Origin: an uncultured Rikenellaceae bacterium
GTDB lineage: Bacteria; Bacteroidota; Bacteroidia; Bacteroidales; VadinHA17
Reading direction: 5' to 3'
Length of the DNA stretch: 64,000 nt
Assembly (NCBI GenBank): GCA_964633505.1
Contig: CAZWHC010000013.1
Location: 11,685-75,684 of the forward strand
Part shown: piece by piece, positions 53,629 through 59,901 of the stretch
How the letters are laid out: every line of letters starts with the position of its first letter
How positions within the stretch are numbered: position 1 is the first letter of the stretch
The notes under the pieces: model-generated
What the model was told of the DNA's origin: nothing
What the model saw: only the letters and a program-made list of their open reading frames with translations
Databases searched by the model: none
Translations under genes and position numbers: made by a program

Positions 53629-55098
53629 ATGAAGAATAACTTCACAATCTACAATAGTCTTTCACGGCAGAAAGAGATTTTCAAACCCCTGAATCCGCCA
53701 TTTGCAGGTATTTATGTCTGCGGACCTACAGTTTACAGCAATGCTCATCTCGGGCATGCCAGGCCGGCAATAACATTTGACCTGCTTTACCGCTACCTGC
53801 TTCATCTGGGCTATAAGGTCAGATATGTAAGGAACATAACAGATGTCGGGCATCTCGAAAATGATGCTGATGAAGGCGAGGACAAGATTGAGAAGACAGC
53901 ACGGCTTGAGCATCTGGAACCGATGGAGGTGGTTCAGAATTATATGAACACCTTCCACAGGAACATGGATCAGCTCAACACCCTCAAACCATCAATAGAA
54001 CCGAGGGCTTCGGGACATATCATTGAACAACAGGAGTTTATAAGGCTTCTTCTCGATAAAGGCTATGCCTATGAGGTGAACGGATCTGTATATTTTGATG
54101 TGCTGCTTTACAATCAGACATATAAATACGGGAAACTGTCGGGACGTATTCTTGAAGATCTTCAGACAAATACAAGGGAACTGGAGGGGCAGGAAGAAAA
54201 AAGAAATCCCTTTGATTTTGCTCTTTGGAAAAAAGCCTCACCGGGTCATCTTATGAAATGGCCATCGCAATGGAGCGACGGTTATCCGGGATGGCATCTC
54301 GAATGTTCAGCGATGAGCATTAAATATCTTGGAGAAGTTTTTGATATCCATGGAGGAGGGATGGACCTGCAGTTCCCGCATCACGAGTGTGAAATTGCAC
54401 AGTCGACCGGAGCCCTTGGACATGAGTCGGTAAGATACTGGATGCACAATAACATGATCACCATAAACGGTCAGAAGATGGCGCGGTCGCTTGGTAATTT
54501 CATTACTCTCGACCAGCTGTTCAGCGGTGATCATCCCATGCTTGAACAGGCATACAGCCCGATGACAATCAGGTTCTTTATCCTGCAGGCTCATTACAGG
54601 AGCACTGTCGATTTCTCCAATGAGGCTCTGCAGGCGGCAGAAAAAGGATTGCAGAGGCTCTTCAAGGGATTGGAGACACTTGCAAAGCTTAAACCCTGCG
54701 AAAGCTCGACTGTCGATATAAACGATCTTAAGAAGAAATGCTATGACGCAATCGATGATGATCTGAACAGTCCGGTATTGCTGTCATATCTGTTTGAAGG
54801 AGTGAAATATATAAACCAGGTTAATGACGGCACCGAAAAGCTTAATGCTGATGATCTGGAGTCGCTTAAAAACCTGCTTCACACTTTTGTTTTTGATATT
54901 CTTGGTCTTGATGCAGGATCAGAAAGCGGCGGTGATGAAAAGCTTACGGCAGAGCTTATGAATATTATAATCGGCCTCCGTCAGGACGCCAGGGTTAAAA
55001 AAGACTTTGCCACATCCGACAAGATAAGGGATGAGCTTAAAAAAGCAGGTGTCATCCTGAAGGATAAGAAGGAAGGTGTTGAATGGGAAAAAGAATAA
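53629..55098 (+). CDS. cysS: Cysteine--tRNA ligase
   Basis: 489 aa with HIGH (NAHLGHA) and a KMSKS variant (KMARS). Confidence 0.96.
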
Positions 55099-55102
55099 AA
55101 AC

Positions 55103-55164
55103 AGGGGCCAGGGGTGGTTTGGATTTGATCCCCTCCCGGGAGGGGTAAGGGGTGGGTTGGATTT
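55103..55164 (-). repeat. G/C-rich palindromic repeat (copy C: short variant plus truncated unit) filling the cysS-ispG intergenic space
   Basis: The reverse complement of 55127-55164 is aaatccaacccaccccttacccctcccgggaggggatc, 38/38 identical to 57167-57204. It contains the 16-nt perfect palindrome cccctcccgggagggg and the run GGGAGGGGTAAGGGGTGGG (55138-55156). Confidence 0.85.
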
Positions 55165-55165
55165 C

Positions 55166-57115
55166 TCAGGATGGCTTTTTGCCAATATCTTCCTCAATAA
55201 TCCTCAGCAGCTCTTTCGCAGCCTCCTTCTGATTTACATTTTTCAGCACAGGCTCCATGCCCCTGTAAATATGAACCTTATCGGGTCCGGCACCAACATA
55301 TCCATAATCAGATCCGGCCATTTCACCTGGTCCGTTCACTATGCATCCCATTATTGCGATCCTGATACCGCTTAAGTGACTCGTCATCTGCTTCACTTCC
55401 TTTACTGCATCCTGAAGGTCGAATTTTGTTCGTCCGCATGTTGGGCATGACAGATATGTTACTCTTGTTATCCTGGCCTCAGTAGACTGCAAAAGTGAGA
55501 ATGCAAGTTCTCTGAGTTTTTCACCATGAACCGTACCTTTATTGCTTATACAAACACCGTCTGCCTGTTTTGTTATGAAGTATTTACCGAGTATTGATCC
55601 GATATCTATGGCAAGCTTTTCAGGATCATTTTCACTGAAAACAGGATTAAGTATAGTTGTGCCAGTATTTTTACGAATTACGAATTTCTCATATGGGTTG
55701 AAAGTGGAAATTGTAACATTTGTTACTTTCCCGTTTTCATCAAGGAAAGTTTCCTTTTCGGCAGTAAAGACTTCCGGTTTGTAAGGTTTCAGATGATTTT
55801 TAAATTCAAGTCTTTCTGAAGGCTCTTTAATCCGTCCATCTGGTCCTGCAATTGCGCGAAGGATTTCTTTTGCCACTGGTATCTCATTTTCCGGCGCTTC
55901 CGAGAGTGAGACCCTGATTGTATCACCTATACCTTCTGAAAGAAGAGCTCCTATCCCTGCAGCCGATCTCATCCTCCCGTCTTCCCCTTCTCCTGCTTCA
56001 GTGACACCAAGATGCAGCGGATATGCAAATCCTCCTGCAGTCATCATGTCGGCTAAAAGACGGGTAGCTTTTATCATCACTGCGGTATCCGACGATTTCA
56101 TCGAAAGTACTAGTGAATGGAAGTTCTCAGCTCTGAGAATCTTTATGAACTCCATTGCCGAAACAGCCATTCCTTCAGGTGTATTACCATACCTGGTCAT
56201 AATCCTGTCGGAAAGTGATCCGTGATTTACACCGATCCGGACAGCTGTCCCATTTGCAGTGCATATTTTGAGTAACGGAACAATTCTGGCATGAATCCTT
56301 TCAAGTTCTTCAGCATATTCCTTATCTGTGAATTCGGTTAAGGTGAAAGAGGCCCTCTTATCAACATAGTTCCCCGGATTTATCCTTATCTTTTCTACTA
56401 TTCCGGCAGCAACTTCGGCAACAGCGGGATTGAAATGGATATCTGCAATAAGAGGAGTATTAAACCCTGCCTTTCGAAGTTCATATTTAATATTTGCAAG
56501 GTTTTCCGCTTCCTTTACGCCCTGGGCTGTAATCCTGACAAAGTCGGCCCCGGCCTCGATTATCCTTATGCATTGTGCTACTGTTGCCCTGGTATCAAGG
56601 GTGTTTGTGTTTGTCATCGACTGGATCCTTACAGGATAGTCGCCTCCAAGAGGAACCGAACCTATAAATACTGGAGTGGAGATGTACCTTCTTAAGTTCC
56701 CCTCCCTGGAGAGCCTGCCCTGCTCCAGCGGGGGGTCAGGGGTGGGTCTCTTCCTCTCTACCCAATCCTCAATTACACTTAAAACATTCCACATATTCTT
56801 TTTAACTTCCAAATCATCAAATCTCAGGAAGCTAACTCCGAGCTTTTCAAGTTCCCTTTGCCTTTCTTCATCGTAGTCATACCTGTAAGTATGTGAGTCT
56901 CCATCAATCTCGATAGCAAGACTCAACTCCTTGCAATAAAAATCGACAATATAATTGCCAATTGGAATTTGCCGGTCAAAATCAAAACCAAGGATTTTCT
57001 TTTGCTTCAATTCATTCCATAGAAGAACTTCTGAAAGGGTCATGTTTTTTCGTAATTGCCTTGCAAGCTCTTTTAATTCAGGATTATATGGGATGATCGT
57101 ATGCTTTTTAGGCAT
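55166..57115 (-). CDS. ispG: Fusion ORF: N-terminal DUF559 endonuclease-like domain, repeat-encoded linker, then 4-hydroxy-3-methylbut-2-en-1-yl diphosphate synthase (IspG/GcpE, long form)
   Basis: 649 aa. Residues 1-120 are DUF559-like (YNPELKELARQLRKNMTLSEVLLWNELK...YIVDFYC...LAIEIDGDSH...FLRFDDLEV). Residues 123-141, RPTPDPPLEQGRLSREGNL, are a translated repeat. From residue 142 the sequence is IspG-like (RRYISTPVFIGSVPLGGDYPVRIQSMTNT...CPTCGRT). Confidence 0.85.
   Translation of the reverse strand: MPKKHTIIPYNPELKELARQLRKNMTLSEVLLWNELKQKKILGFDFDRQIPIGNYIVDFYCKELSLAIEIDGDSHTYRYDYDEERQRELEKLGVSFLRFDDLEVKKNMWNVLSVIEDWVERKRPTPDPPLEQGRLSREGNLRRYISTPVFIGSVPLGGDYPVRIQSMTNTNTLDTRATVAQCIRIIEAGADFVRITAQGVKEAENLANIKYELRKAGFNTPLIADIHFNPAVAEVAAGIVEKIRINPGNYVDKRASFTLTEFTDKEYAEELERIHARIVPLLKICTANGTAVRIGVNHGSLSDRIMTRYGNTPEGMAVSAMEFIKILRAENFHSLVLSMKSSDTAVMIKATRLLADMMTAGGFAYPLHLGVTEAGEGEDGRMRSAAGIGALLSEGIGDTIRVSLSEAPENEIPVAKEILRAIAGPDGRIKEPSERLEFKNHLKPYKPEVFTAEKETFLDENGKVTNVTISTFNPYEKFVIRKNTGTTILNPVFSENDPEKLAIDIGSILGKYFITKQADGVCISNKGTVHGEKLRELAFSLLQSTEARITRVTYLSCPTCGRTKFDLQDAVKEVKQMTSHLSGIRIAIMGCIVNGPGEMAGSDYGYVGAGPDKVHIYRGMEPVLKNVNQKEAAKELLRIIEEDIGKKPS
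56696..56749 (-). repeat. G/C-rich palindromic repeat, long variant (copy D), lying inside the fusion ORF
   Basis: The reverse complement reads acccacccctgaccccccgctggagcagggcaggctctccagggaggggaa, about 50/55 identical to copy B2 at 57207-57267 in inverted orientation. Confidence 0.85.
56765..57115 (-). other. DUF559 (Vsr-like endonuclease fold) domain-coding segment of the fusion ORF
   Basis: Motifs as listed for the fusion ORF. This length is that of a stand-alone DUF559 protein. Confidence 0.8.
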
Positions 57116-57166
57116 TGTGTAACTCTTTTAATCAAATTATTAGTTGTTGATGGGAGCAAGTTTTTA

Positions 57167-57306
57167 AAATCCAACCCACCCCTTACCCCTCCCGGGAGGG
57201 GATCTGAAAACCAACCCACCCCTAGCCCCCCGATGGAGCAGGGCAGGCTCTCCAAGGAGGGGAATTTGAAAGAAACCCACCCCTGGCCCCTCCAGGGAGG
57301 GGAACC
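57167..57306 (+). repeat. Block of three G/C-rich palindromic repeat units (B1 short, B2 long, B3 short)
   Basis: B1 is 57167-57204, B2 is 57207-57267 and B3 is 57270-57306. Each begins A-rich plus ACCCACCCCT and ends CC-NGG-GAGGGGA. Confidence 0.85.
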
Positions 57307-57331
57307 CTCTCAATGGTCATCTGTCCTCTTT

Positions 57332-57408
57332 CCCTGAGCCCTGAGCCCTGAGCCCTGTGCCCTGTGCCCTGAGCCCTGTGCCCTGAGCCCTGTGCCCTGA
57401 GCCCTGAG
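57332..57408. repeat. Heptamer tandem repeat (CCCTGWG) x11
   Basis: ccctgag x3, ccctgtg x2, ccctgag, ccctgtg, ccctgag, ccctgtg, ccctgag x2. A 12th degenerate unit, cccttca, contains the rnr stop codon (tca at 57413-57415). Confidence 0.9.
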
Positions 57409-57412
57409 CCCT

Positions 57413-59542
57413 TCAGGCAAACCTATAATCAAGCTGTTTTTTCTGAAGGTCTGCTTTGACGACCTCAACCTTCACCCTGTCGCCCAGAGTATATACCTTT
57501 CCCCTTGAACGGCCCCTGATGCAGTAGTTTTCCTCATCATATTCATAATAATCATCGCCCAGATCCCTTACGCTTACCATCCCTTCGCATTGATTCTCAA
57601 TGATCTCGACATAGATACCCCATTCAGTGACTCCTGAGATCACACCTTCGAAGACCTGGCCGGTCCTTTCGCTCATAAACTCCACCTGTTTATATTTTAC
57701 AGATGCTCTTTCGGCCTCATTTGCAAGCCTTTCCATCTTTGAGGAGTGCTCACAAAGCTTTTCATATTTTTCCTGGGTCCCGGGATTTTCCCTGCTCAGG
57801 TATGAAGTAAGCAGCCGGTGTACCATCATATCGGGGTAGCGGCGTATAGGAGATGTAAAGTGGGTATAATATTTAAATGCAAGTCCATAGTGCCCTATAT
57901 TTTTCGTTGAGTAGATTGCCTTGGCCATTGATCTCAGGGCGATAGTCTCGATTATATTCTGCTCGCTCCTGCCTGCAACCTCCTTCATGAGCTTGTTCAT
58001 GGCGCGGGGCAGGCTGTTTGCATCATCAGGAAGCTTATAGCCGAACCTTGTTATGAACTGTCTGAAGTTCCCGATCTTTTCAGGATCGGGTTTATCGTGT
58101 ATCCTGTAAACGAATGTTTTCCCTTTCAGGTTCCGTGTCACGAACTCAGCCACCTTCCTGTTTGCCAGAAGCATGAACTCTTCAATAAGCTGGTTGGAGG
58201 TTCCCATTTCGCGAAACTTTATTCCAACAGGCCTGCCGTTTTCATCAAGGTCAAATTTTACTTCCTCCCTCTCAAAGGAAAATGCGCCCATCCCGAACCG
58301 TTTTGTCCTGAGCTGCTGTGCAAGACTATGCAGAGGAAGCAGTAATTCTTTCATATCGCCTTCGCCGGTGTCGATTACCTTTTGGGCATCACCGTATGAA
58401 AACCTCCTGTCGGAATTAATAATTGTCTTCCCAAACCATTCATTCAGCACTTCTGCCCTTTCATTCAGTTCAAATACCGCAGAATATGTAAGTTTATCTT
58501 CCGACGGATTAAGGGAACAGATATGGTTCGACAATCTTTCGGGGAGCATCGGGACTACCCTGTCGACAAGATAAACTGATGTTGCCCTTTGCCTTGCCTC
58601 ATTTTCAACAACCGAACCCTGACGGACATAATGTGTTACGTCGGCGATATGAACTCCAACCTCGAAATTTCCGTTTTCGAGCTGTCTCATTGAAAGAGCG
58701 TCGTCGAAATCCTTCGCATCTTCAGGATCGATGGTGAATGTCGGGATATCGCGGAAATCCCTTCTTTCCTTAATATCAGCCTCTGTTATTTCACCATTAA
58801 TCCTTTCGGCATCCTTTTCAACCTCTTCATCGAACTTGTAGGGAAGCTCAAATTCTGCGAGGATGGCATGGATCTCTGTTTCATGCATCCCCGGGTCTCC
58901 AAGGACGTCAATGATCTCCGCAACAGGATTTTTTGATCCCCGGCTCCAGTCCACTACCTTTGCAACTGCTTTCTGCCCCTGTCTAGCACCGTTCAGCTTT
59001 GAGGAAGGGATGAACAGATCGAACGGCATATTTTTGTTATCGGGGATAAGAAAAGCGAAGTTGGGCATTATCTCAACGGTACCGACGAAAGATGTCCTCC
59101 AGCGTTCGATTATCTCTACAACTTCACCCTCGGGCCTTGCGCCTTTTCTTTTTGCAAACAGCCAGACTTTAACCTTATCGCCATGAAGTGCAGTATTGAG
59201 ATTCTTCGAAGAAACGAAGATATCATCATCACTTTCATCCGATTTTATGAAACCATAACCCATTCGTGTCATATCGACGGTTCCGGTTATATAAACCTTG
59301 GCCGGCGCCTTTGAACGGTATTTACCCTGATAGACTTCGACAATCTCGCCCTTCGCGGCAAGTTCCCTCAGTGCATTGGATACCATTCTCCTTTCAGACG
59401 AATCGTTAAAATTTAACCTTTTGGAGATTTGCTTATAATTAAATGTCTGCTGGGGATTCCCCGACAATACAGACATAATCTGGCCTGTTATCGCATCATC
59501 CGGCACTCCCTGCCGTTTTTTTCCTTTACCCTTCGAACTCAT
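57413..59542 (-). CDS. rnr: Ribonuclease R
   Basis: RNB catalytic domain, N-terminal winged-helix/cold-shock region and C-terminal S1 domain (…GVISGVTEWGIYVEI…). Start moved to the ATG at 59542 (MSSKGKGKKRQG); the track TTG start at 59614 abuts the divergent gene. Confidence 0.92.
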   Translation of the reverse strand: MSSKGKGKKRQGVPDDAITGQIMSVLSGNPQQTFNYKQISKRLNFNDSSERRMVSNALRELAAKGEIVEVYQGKYRSKAPAKVYITGTVDMTRMGYGFIKSDESDDDIFVSSKNLNTALHGDKVKVWLFAKRKGARPEGEVVEIIERWRTSFVGTVEIMPNFAFLIPDNKNMPFDLFIPSSKLNGARQGQKAVAKVVDWSRGSKNPVAEIIDVLGDPGMHETEIHAILAEFELPYKFDEEVEKDAERINGEITEADIKERRDFRDIPTFTIDPEDAKDFDDALSMRQLENGNFEVGVHIADVTHYVRQGSVVENEARQRATSVYLVDRVVPMLPERLSNHICSLNPSEDKLTYSAVFELNERAEVLNEWFGKTIINSDRRFSYGDAQKVIDTGEGDMKELLLPLHSLAQQLRTKRFGMGAFSFEREEVKFDLDENGRPVGIKFREMGTSNQLIEEFMLLANRKVAEFVTRNLKGKTFVYRIHDKPDPEKIGNFRQFITRFGYKLPDDANSLPRAMNKLMKEVAGRSEQNIIETIALRSMAKAIYSTKNIGHYGLAFKYYTHFTSPIRRYPDMMVHRLLTSYLSRENPGTQEKYEKLCEHSSKMERLANEAERASVKYKQVEFMSERTGQVFEGVISGVTEWGIYVEIIENQCEGMVSVRDLGDDYYEYDEENYCIRGRSRGKVYTLGDRVKVEVVKADLQKKQLDYRFA

Positions 59543-59587
59543 GATTCCGGTTTTTGCGAAGTTAGGAAAAGGATAATGAAAAAACAG

Positions 59588-59595
59588 TACATTTG
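59588..59595 (+). promoter_or_regulatory. Bacteroidetes-type -7 box (TACATTTG) for the PqqD-like operon
   Basis: Matches TAnnTTTG, 18 nt upstream of the ATG at 59614. Confidence 0.45.
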
Positions 59596-59613
59596 ATACA
59601 TAATTGAAATTCA

Positions 59614-59901
59614 ATGGCAGATCTCAGTTCGGTATTCACCCATTCACGCAATATTGTTACCAGGAAAACCGGGAATGAATATGTTCTTGTTCCGGTAGCG
59701 AATAACATTGCCGACATGAATAGTGTTTACACTCTCAATGAAACGGCGGCGTTTATCTGGGAACATCTCGACGGGAAGAAAAGTTTGAGGGAAATCGTTG
59801 ATTATCTGATCGAAGAATATGATATCGATTTTGATTCGGCGTCAGCAGATATGTCGGAATTCATTGACAATATGACTAAATACCTCATCATCAACAAATA
59901 A
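59614..59901 (+). CDS. PqqD-family protein (RiPP recognition element-like peptide chaperone)
   Basis: 95 aa: ...GNEYVLVPV...SVYTLNETAAFIWEHLDGKKSLREIVDYLIEEYDIDFDSASADMSEFIDNM fits the PqqD pattern (LN.t...iW..ldG..s..ei...l..eYdv....a..D...Fi). Confidence 0.8.
   Translation: MADLSSVFTHSRNIVTRKTGNEYVLVPVANNIADMNSVYTLNETAAFIWEHLDGKKSLREIVDYLIEEYDIDFDSASADMSEFIDNMTKYLIINK

Follow-up and report, generated by a model that had tools for sequence, protein, structure and literature searches.

How does a bacterium make an indispensable enzyme when the gene for it lacks a start codon of its own? The question is raised by the ispG locus in a 64,000-nucleotide stretch of the genome of an uncultured Rikenellaceae bacterium (GenBank assembly GCA_964633505.1, contig CAZWHC010000013.1); the whole of this stretch is called the window below. 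IspG is an enzyme of the methylerythritol phosphate (MEP) pathway. In the window its coding sequence forms one open reading frame (ORF) with a gene for a DUF559 domain, a nuclease-like domain, and the two parts are joined by a palindromic repeat. Our analysis confirmed that this fusion is real, recurrent and evolutionarily unstable, and that the start of an essential gene has given way to a translated repeat. The ORF at 55166-57115 is probably a genuine gene fusion that is read through the repeat into a single two-domain IspG protein.

The fused reading frame and its authenticity

A preliminary description of the locus placed a DUF559 domain, a translated repeat and IspG in one ORF of 649 amino acids, and the ORF itself, the Pfam matches and the repeat coordinates (Table 1) agree with it. 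The reading frame opens just four codons 5' of M1. The only Pfam families in the protein are DUF559, MTES_1575 and GcpE; DUF559 covers residues 14-116 (E 1.6e-29) and GcpE covers residues 148-642 (E 1.6e-117). The linker copy of the repeat has no stop codon in the fusion frame over its 54 nt, and it stands where the DUF559 stop and the native ispG start would be. An AlphaFold2 model based on an alignment of 118 sequences reached a mean predicted local distance difference test (pLDDT) score of 85.8 and a predicted template modelling (pTM) score of 0.76. In this model DUF559 is folded (residues 12-122; pLDDT about 77-90, with a dip at residues 75-79), the linker is disordered (residues 125-140; pLDDT <50) and IspG is predicted confidently. 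The linker mRNA folds no better than shuffled sequences (z = 0.67), the Rfam scan of 54900-57600 gave no intron and only a sub-threshold chance match, and a scan for sigma-70 promoters and terminators, with a model that does not fit Bacteroidetes promoters, gave results no better than those on shuffles.

The IspG part matches PF04551 over its full length (profile positions 3-343 of 343, E 1.6e-117) and scores 415 bits with TIGR00612 (cut-off 280). Two long Bacteroidetes-type IspG equivalog models score under their cut-offs because the middle insert is shorter here. Position 7 of NCBIfam PRK02048 aligns to residue 142, so the native IspG start would be expected about six codons earlier, inside the repeat. 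The three cysteines that bind the [4Fe-4S] cluster (C557, C560 and C591) and the conserved Glu of this C-terminal domain (E598) are invariant in the alignment of 118 IspG sequences, which includes a 99.5%-identical variant (P0001). In this 98%-complete genome ispG is a single-copy gene, IspH, Dxr and the rest of the MEP pathway are present, and no 3-hydroxy-3-methylglutaryl-CoA (HMG-CoA) reductase was found in the assembly. Taken together, the single copy, the MEP pathway and the lack of an HMG-CoA reductase hit suggest that the fused protein acts as the IspG enzyme of the cell.

The DUF559 part also looks intact. It scores 102.4 bits with PF04480 (cut-off 20.6), and the nearest solved structure is 3HRL, an 'endonuclease-like protein' (PDB 3hrl_A, E 7e-15). 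DUF559 has been grouped with Vsr in the PD-(D/E)xK superfamily (PMC3424549). The D..ExDG..H motif (IVDFYCKELSLAIEIDGDSH) is present, and an alignment of 87 homologues shows no variation in its D, E, D, G and H columns. The ratio of nonsynonymous to synonymous substitution rates (dN/dS; pairwise NG86 over 112 ungapped DUF559 codons, with dS near saturation) was 0.058 for fused loci, 0.083 for adjacent unfused loci and 0.069 for DUF559 genes elsewhere. Such ratios argue that the fused DUF559 is under purifying selection rather than decaying, and it may well keep its own, putatively nuclease, function within the fusion.

A false junction has to be considered for any ORF of this kind. The repeat contains C and G homopolymer runs, and a long-read metagenome-assembled genome (MAG) of a relative, G003, is frameshifted at this locus, as could be expected if a missed stop codon or an indel in the GC-rich repeat had joined two separate genes in the assembly or the consensus. 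Against this, three assemblies of the species made independently of one another share an identical frame, as do 36 or more homologues, and none of the frames contains the native ispG start codons; an error of this kind is scarcely credible. Besides the assembly studied here, the ORF is present in L036, a JGI metagenome contig of 110 kb (99.4% DNA identity, 3 amino-acid differences, same neighbours), and in L083 from another MAG, GCA_035915055.1 (99.8% identical over 2157 nt, gap-free). The exact fusion protein is on record from NCBI and Logan. Thus the fusion that the preliminary description reported for this genome is real here. It is not unique to it, being a recurrent and unstable state of the locus in the genus.

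Fused and unfused relatives and the start of translation

We found at least 36 distinct DUF559-IspG homologues, 58-94% identical to the query, in JGI, ENA, NCBI and Logan assemblies; they come from MAGs of uncultured Bacteroidales/Bacteroidia. In 31 of them the DUF559 is of the type found here (class A); in the other five it is clearly of another type and the repeat differs too (class B, linker SPSQGDRRGSS). All other fused loci whose flanks can be read are arranged as cysS(+) > DUF559-ispG(+), with rnr(-) convergent to them, and the order cysS > ispG is also found in the closest unfused relatives. When 349 genomes of the family were searched with the DUF559 domain, DUF559 lay directly between cysS and ispG in 20 of the 30 best class A loci. 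The ancestral order in the relatives is cysS > DUF559 > ispG, convergent with rnr.

Comparison with relatives had been proposed as a check in the preliminary description. A DUF559 stop and a normal ispG ATG do exist in relatives, but with native N-terminal codons that are deleted in the window. In ten unfused loci DUF559 stops after one or two repeat units and ispG begins with its ATG and a native N-terminus that follows the pattern 'M x2-10 Y(I/V)SS' (for example, MAFYTSS.., MSTQQYISS.. and MTIKYLTPYISS..). In nine loci, including this one, the native start codons are missing, the repeat abuts Y(I/V)S(S/T), and the frame is open up to the DUF559 ATG through linkers of 1-19 repeat units. These nine belong to a set of ten loci without a native ispG start, so that nine of the ten are in frame with DUF559. 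Selection on a gene that the cell cannot do without would be expected to hold a start-less ispG in the DUF559 frame, as observed. In the tenth locus, G003, DUF559 reads through ..SREGSLRRYYLSSIVQIGS and the frame is then lost inside the conserved IspG N-terminus. The frameshift is likely an indel error because G003 comes from a long-read project and its other contig has fragmented cysS and rnr.

Two IspG calls of 482 amino acids, both beginning at the Met of IQSM, were considered as counter-examples with neither a native start nor a fusion, and were rejected. The contigs of P0097 end in repeats; P0082 is on the same contig as G003 and is this very locus, a fused one that is frameshifted inside conserved ispG. 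One further locus (L077) was left out of the comparison because it is N-masked.

Two fused loci have a peculiar structure. L072 (G216:C16) has a DUF559-ispG ORF of 1068 amino acids, and its linker consists of about 19 tandem 21-aa units (..NPAKMIKPTPDHSQEGNPKED..) with an in-frame ATG in each unit, an extreme expansion of the translated repeat. L041 374-5478 (contig_11228, ERZ25039602) contains three DUF559 genes: the first lies upstream of cysS, the second is the one fused to ispG, and the third lies downstream of ispG. In this long-read assembly cysS and rnr are fragmented and the fusion ORF is intact.

We propose the following origin of the fusion. In this Bacteroidales genus cysS and ispG are separated by a small DUF559 gene with inverted copies of its own repeat on either side. 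In the lineage of the window the 3' repeat copy stands where the DUF559 stop and the first few codons of ispG, its ATG among them, would be, a position that it may have reached by repeat-mediated rearrangement. A ribosome would start at the DUF559 ATG and read through the disordered linker of ~20 residues into IspG, and the product would be a 649-aa two-domain protein, the only IspG of the cell. Selection on the indispensable MEP-pathway enzyme would hold the frame open, and the N-terminus of the IspG TIM barrel would tolerate the addition. In relatives the IspG N-terminus upstream of Y144 varies widely, with many different repeat-derived leaders, and it seems to accept almost any addition. 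The N-terminal end of beta-1 sits on the TIM-barrel face opposite the active site, which fits this tolerance of leaders.

In this account translation begins at M1. According to the preliminary description, there is no ATG, GTG or TTG from the end of the DUF559 domain to the conserved start of IspG, and only CTG and ATA/ATC occur there. A codon scan from M108 to IQSMTNT bears out the first statement, and the second is seen directly in the in-frame codons CTG (L130), ATC (I145) and ATA (I151). Several other fused loci also have no ATG, GTG or TTG in the linker. The conclusion that IspG can be made only as a fusion, barring an error or a non-canonical start, is supported, with the qualification that starts within DUF559 had been overlooked; an error is indeed very unlikely. 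The in-frame canonical starts found by the scan are M1, TTG L102, ATG M108 and then only the Met of IQSMTNT. Initiation at L102 or M108 could yield IspG with a leader of 35-41 residues, without a functional nuclease domain.

It is unlikely that IspG is made mainly from one of these two internal starts, with the full fusion made in small amounts or incidentally. Both codons lie in the fusion frame, and an A-rich stretch (GTTAAAAAGAATATG) precedes M108. Bacteroidetes largely do without initiation led by Shine-Dalgarno sequences, and an A-rich context favours initiation in them; moreover, relatives manage with IspG leaders of comparable length. The position of M108, however, is occupied by I or L in the fused homologues P0015, P0029, P0030, P0034 and L071, and the last of these has no ATG at all from M1 to the IQSM Met. 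M108 is just as frequent in free-standing DUF559 genes, so it has the appearance of a family residue and not of a selected start. Since M108 is unconserved in fused homologues and equally present in free-standing genes, we rejected a selected internal start at M108 as a general explanation. A non-canonical start at CTG L130, ATC I145 or ATA I151, which would yield a near-native IspG independent of DUF559, is very improbable. All three codons occur in frame, and I145 sits 1-3 codons from the aligned native Met residues of relatives. But such a start would free the DUF559 frame to drift, and yet the frame is open in nine of the ten start-less loci despite very different linker lengths; in addition, the lineages without DUF559 gained canonical ATGs.

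Instability of the fusion and inversion of the cassette

Fused, repeat-only and plain alleles are interleaved on the tree of IspG and thus represent a presence/absence polymorphism at one site. Three sister pairs differ in the 5' module alone: P0012 (class A fusion) and P0053 (class B repeat leader), P0007 (fusion) and P0043 (repeat-only leader), and P0006 (fusion) and P0056. The N-terminus of P0056, MGRKVDRDLNDKAKSLKDHM, matches the 20 residues with which a class B DUF559 begins (P0039, MTKVDRDLIEKARALRNCM), and P0056 looks like a DUF559 deletion that retained the donated start. Short leaders with one translated repeat precede 29 or more unfused IspGs (the repeat is class B in 16 and class A in 13), for example MKNNLxNxxLSPSQGDHRG.. 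and M..NKPTPNPSREGS... Among the 31 fused class A proteins the mean identity is 82.5% for DUF559 versus 72.7% for IspG, and the two identities co-vary (Mantel rho 0.40, p 0.001). This co-variation implies largely vertical co-inheritance with repeated fusion, de-fusion and loss. A purely mobile DUF559 without vertical signal was rejected on the same evidence.

Several observations weigh against a stable full-length fusion as the form in which IspG is made. When the IspG core of 118 homologues was placed on a maximum-likelihood tree, fused proteins turned up in scattered positions, as expected of an unstable arrangement and not of a fixed design, and well-supported branches force at least 15 changes of state; a single ancient fusion clade was rejected for this scatter. 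DUF559 is gone from the closest unfused relatives, L037 and L038 (87% identical), which have acquired new starts. In L038 a clean 'TAG GCA ATG AAA TAT' junction follows cysS. In L037 (2990-3080) the ispG ATG overlaps the cysS stop (ATGA), and its first 22 codons contain a translated repeat copy (..SPSRQGNLKRYISTP) at the junction where the window also has one. The loss of DUF559 in these relatives implies that DUF559 is dispensable for IspG function and that the fusion is unstable rather than fixed. Finally, an open linker frame would be needed equally for a start at M108 or TTG102, and for this genome the comparison of loci does not separate such a start from M1. With these points taken into account, we still regard the full fusion translated from M1 as the likely functional product.

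The linker repeat and its inverted partner (56694-56747 and 57214-57267) bracket a 574-bp DUF559 module, and a perfect 38-nt inverted repeat, whose arms are copies of the same repeat family, brackets the whole cassette exactly. In this genome (G000) and in L036 the order is rnr > DUF559-ispG, convergent with cysS. This is opposite to every relative examined: P0004 (90% identical), P0005, P0017, P0019, P0029 and P0040 have cysS > DUF559-ispG, convergent with rnr. The opposite orientation and the perfect repeats point to a recent inversion of the cassette by recombination between the 38-nt copies, and transcription into the cassette probably now comes from rnr. In the proposed order of events the fusion would have arisen first; then the whole DUF559-ispG cassette would have been inverted between the identical 38-nt copies, with rnr supplying transcription.

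DUF559 genes have been reported as enriched among predicted targets of programmed inversion (PMC9881135). If the cassette were a programmed and reversible invertible element, a flip between the 38-nt repeats would switch ispG between cysS-driven and rnr-driven expression, and a flip between the 54-nt repeats would switch it between the fused and unfused states. Inverted repeats do flank the segment (the perfect 38-nt pair and the 54-nt pair with 91% complementarity), the orientation differs from that in relatives, and an in-silico flip of the inner module (56748-57213) produces an ATG-initiated ispG ORF of 564 amino acids together with a free DUF559 ORF of 167 amino acids. The flipped ispG ORF starts at an antisense ATG at 57101 (+ strand ORF 57101-57337) with the leader MLFRHCVTLLIKLLVVDGSKFLKSNPPLTPPGRGSENQ... 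This ATG, however, rests on a non-conserved His codon; by our own rough estimate a compatible ORF would turn up by chance now and then, and the one observed is probably such a case. Only one orientation is seen in all three assemblies of the species where flanks exist. A metagenome scan with the exact 38-mer gave L120 only, a cassette-only contig of 2190 bp (93% identity) that has no flanks and is uninformative on orientation. A programmed switch is thus quite unlikely.

A tandem array of the heptamer CCCTGAG/CCCTGTG (57318-57419, + strand, about 12-14 units) lies between the repeat block 5' of the cassette and rnr, whose 3' end and stop codon it overlaps.

Table 1. Features of the DUF559-ispG locus in the window, and other DUF559 genes of the same genome
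Feature	Position	Strand	Details
DUF559-linker-IspG ORF	55166..57115	-	649 aa; ATG 57113-57115, stop 55166-55168
DUF559 (Vsr-like PD-(D/E)xK nuclease) domain	56768..57076	-	Residues 14-116; D58, E69, D71, H75 intact
Linker repeat copy	56694..56747	-	54-nt palindromic repeat; residues about 123-141, RPTPDPPLEQGRLSREGNL
IspG (GcpE) moiety	55169..56692	-	Residues 142-649; [4Fe-4S] cysteines kept
ATG M108	56792..56794	-	Possible internal start in last DUF559 helix; codon scan
TTG L102	56810..56812	-	Possible internal start in last DUF559 helix; codon scan
Inverted partner of linker repeat	57214..57267		91% complementary over 54 nt; upstream of DUF559 ATG
38-nt repeat arm	55127..55164		Just 3' of ispG stop; perfect inverted repeat (100% complementary)
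Second 38-nt inverted-repeat arm	57167..57204		51 nt upstream of DUF559 ATG
Further repeat-family copy	57274..57303		Upstream of cassette; from inverted-repeat pairs
Partial repeat-family copy	55103..55120		From inverted-repeat pairs
cysS	53629..55098	+	Convergent with cassette here; upstream and co-directional in relatives
rnr (RNase R)	57413..59614	-	Upstream and co-directional here; convergent with ispG in relatives
Other DUF559 genes of this genome (G000)	L001 1300-1960 (C5), L002 1200-1960 (C6), L004 1300-2080 (C3)		Own repeat brackets

The DUF559-plus-repeat unit beyond ispG

The class A repeat consists of a GC-rich hairpin and a GGGGTGGGT tail. The hairpin-plus-GGGGTGG pattern has 23 matches over 12 contigs of this genome. 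All class A DUF559 genes examined, whether fused or unfused and whether at ispG or at another locus, are preceded by 1-4 hairpin-plus-GGGGTGGGT copies that end 15-70 nt before the ATG, and have inverted copies at their 3' end, which read as KPTPxPSREGN. Each of the three other DUF559 genes of the genome is bracketed by inverted copies of its own hairpin-plus-G-rich-tail repeat, of the type TCTCCCCNGGGAGAGGGG..GGGGGTGAGGCC or CCCCCCTTTAGGGGGG..GGGGGGTGAAC, and their ORFs read into the 3' repeat copy, ending in ..SSPSPLGEGDRRG before the stop. In a relative (G221:C11:139066-141144) four class A DUF559 cassettes follow one another in tandem with an exact period of 573 nt, which matches the 574-bp module of the window (56694-57267).

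A protein-database search with the DUF559 part alone, in which long proteins were allowed, collected 87 proteins. In Bacteroidota and in Scalindua/Brocadiaceae MAGs, about 17 enzyme families besides IspG have members that share their reading frame with a DUF559 domain 50-72% identical to ours. Among the partner families are CysQ, QueG, PALP enzymes, ThiE, TrpF, chorismate synthase, HsdR, MiaB-like enzymes and DNA methyltransferases. The DUF559 motif could be placed in 79 of the 87 proteins and is N-terminal in 60, internal in 10 and C-terminal in 9. Repeat-derived peptides are found at most of the junctions displayed for these partner proteins. Internal in-frame copies are found in chorismate synthase (P0160/P0155) and in a MiaB-like radical-SAM methylthiotransferase (P0206), and C-terminal ones in ThiE (P0146/P0134/P0153) and TrpF (P0181); the cassettes in these four enzymes are flanked by peptides of the PTPNPSxEGN or SPLLGGxxGVG type. 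The HsdR case is seen directly in two genomes of the family. In L075 (G150:C28, 1632-5348) DUF559 lies in frame inside a type I restriction HsdR protein of 1238 amino acids with the flanks SPPLEGW.. and ..PLQRRG; in L076 (G126:C71, 504-4211) hsdR is split at the same point into an ORF of 321 amino acids and an ORF of 908 amino acids that begins with DUF559. Similar DUF559 genes also occur free-standing in MAGs labelled Chlorobiota, Ignavibacteriales and Marinimicrobia. Judged by these sequences, the ispG fusion is one instance of a general habit of the DUF559-plus-repeat unit.

We suggest, tentatively and with more doubt than confidence, that DUF559 together with its inverted palindromic repeats forms an autonomous selfish cassette of ~0.57 kb, which does not splice and settles in frame at the start, in the interior or at the end of housekeeping genes, much like an intein or like an RPE that brings a nuclease of its own. 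The suggestion stems from the repeat bracket at all class A genes examined, the separate repeat types of the paralogues, the 573-nt tandem and the ~17 enzyme families. If it is true, the replaced ispG start ties host translation to the frame of the cassette, and decay of the nuclease by frameshift or nonsense mutations would be selected against.

Several known systems resemble this arrangement in part. In repetitive extragenic palindromic (REP) and REPIN systems with their REP-associated tyrosine transposases (RAYTs), a nuclease-type gene is flanked by inverted copies of a dispersed hairpin repeat. The DUF559 genes are likewise placed between inverted copies of a dispersed repeat (about 23 copies). 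The fold, however, is that of a Vsr-like PD-(D/E)xK nuclease and not of an HUH/Y1 (IS200/IS605-like) transposase, and the layout is analogous at most. RAYT identity was rejected for this wrong fold (Pfam gives DUF559 and MTES_1575, both of them restriction-endonuclease-like folds). To our knowledge, no mobilisation activity has been ascribed to DUF559, and we know of no in-frame fusions of RAYTs to housekeeping enzymes.

Palindromic repeats that are translated are known as Rickettsia palindromic elements (RPEs; PMC10969869). As in RPEs, a short palindromic dispersed repeat lies inside ORFs and leaves the host enzyme intact, here as a PTPxPSREGN-type peptide whose translation is predicted in IspG and in many other enzymes. 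RPEs are of non-coding size and have no associated nuclease gene. At our locus, unlike in RPEs, the repeat comes in inverted copies with a nuclease passenger of 120 amino acids, two genes are joined, and the host start is removed.

Free-standing Vsr-like homing endonucleases invade or fracture genes in phage and metagenomic data (Dassa et al. 2009, PMC2677866); I-Bth0305I is a Vsr-like homing endonuclease (PMC3239194), and 'ShiLan' is an HNH insertion that does not splice and sits in frame in a phage methylase (PMC11855218). DUF559 shares with the Vsr-like homing endonucleases the position of a nuclease gene in or at the edge of conserved enzyme genes and its variable presence among close relatives. 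Hairpins upstream of the nuclease ORF and internal in-frame insertions, here in AroC, HsdR and MiaB, are further points of likeness to these endonucleases and to ShiLan. The differences from homing endonucleases are that neither an intron nor an intein is present, that cellular housekeeping genes and not phage replication genes serve as hosts, and that the host gene is fused and not split. The co-divergence of DUF559 and ispG argues against frequent homing. An intein or intron was rejected, since there is no Hint domain (Pfam) and no intron (Rfam, 54900-57600).

An ordinary fusion of adjacent genes is the remaining comparison. As in such fusions, co-directional and co-transcribed neighbours have lost a stop and a start and form one ORF with a flexible linker. 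In contrast to them, there is no evident functional link between the parts, the junction is a repeat of a mobile type, and the fusion has recurred or reverted many times in one genus and with two DUF559 classes. The fusion thus combines known kinds, namely translated repeats similar to MITEs (transposable elements of the miniature inverted-repeat type) and the fusion of adjacent genes. In the library that we searched, no paper described DUF559 fused to IspG, repeats specific to DUF559, or DUF559 residing in frame in housekeeping genes.

For annotation, these results mean that 'long' IspG, CysQ, QueG, AroC and HsdR proteins may bear DUF559 passengers. For the organism, it is unusual that the translation of an indispensable enzyme apparently hinges, through a translated repeat, on the frame of a nuclease gene unrelated to it. 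The unfused, fused, repeat-leader and DUF559-deleted alleles on near-identical ispG genes constitute a natural experiment on the loss and recapture of a start codon and on N-terminal tolerance. For the large DUF559 family this is a first concrete genomic behaviour: its members have repeats of their own, are associated with inversions, and reside in frame in about 17 other enzyme families.

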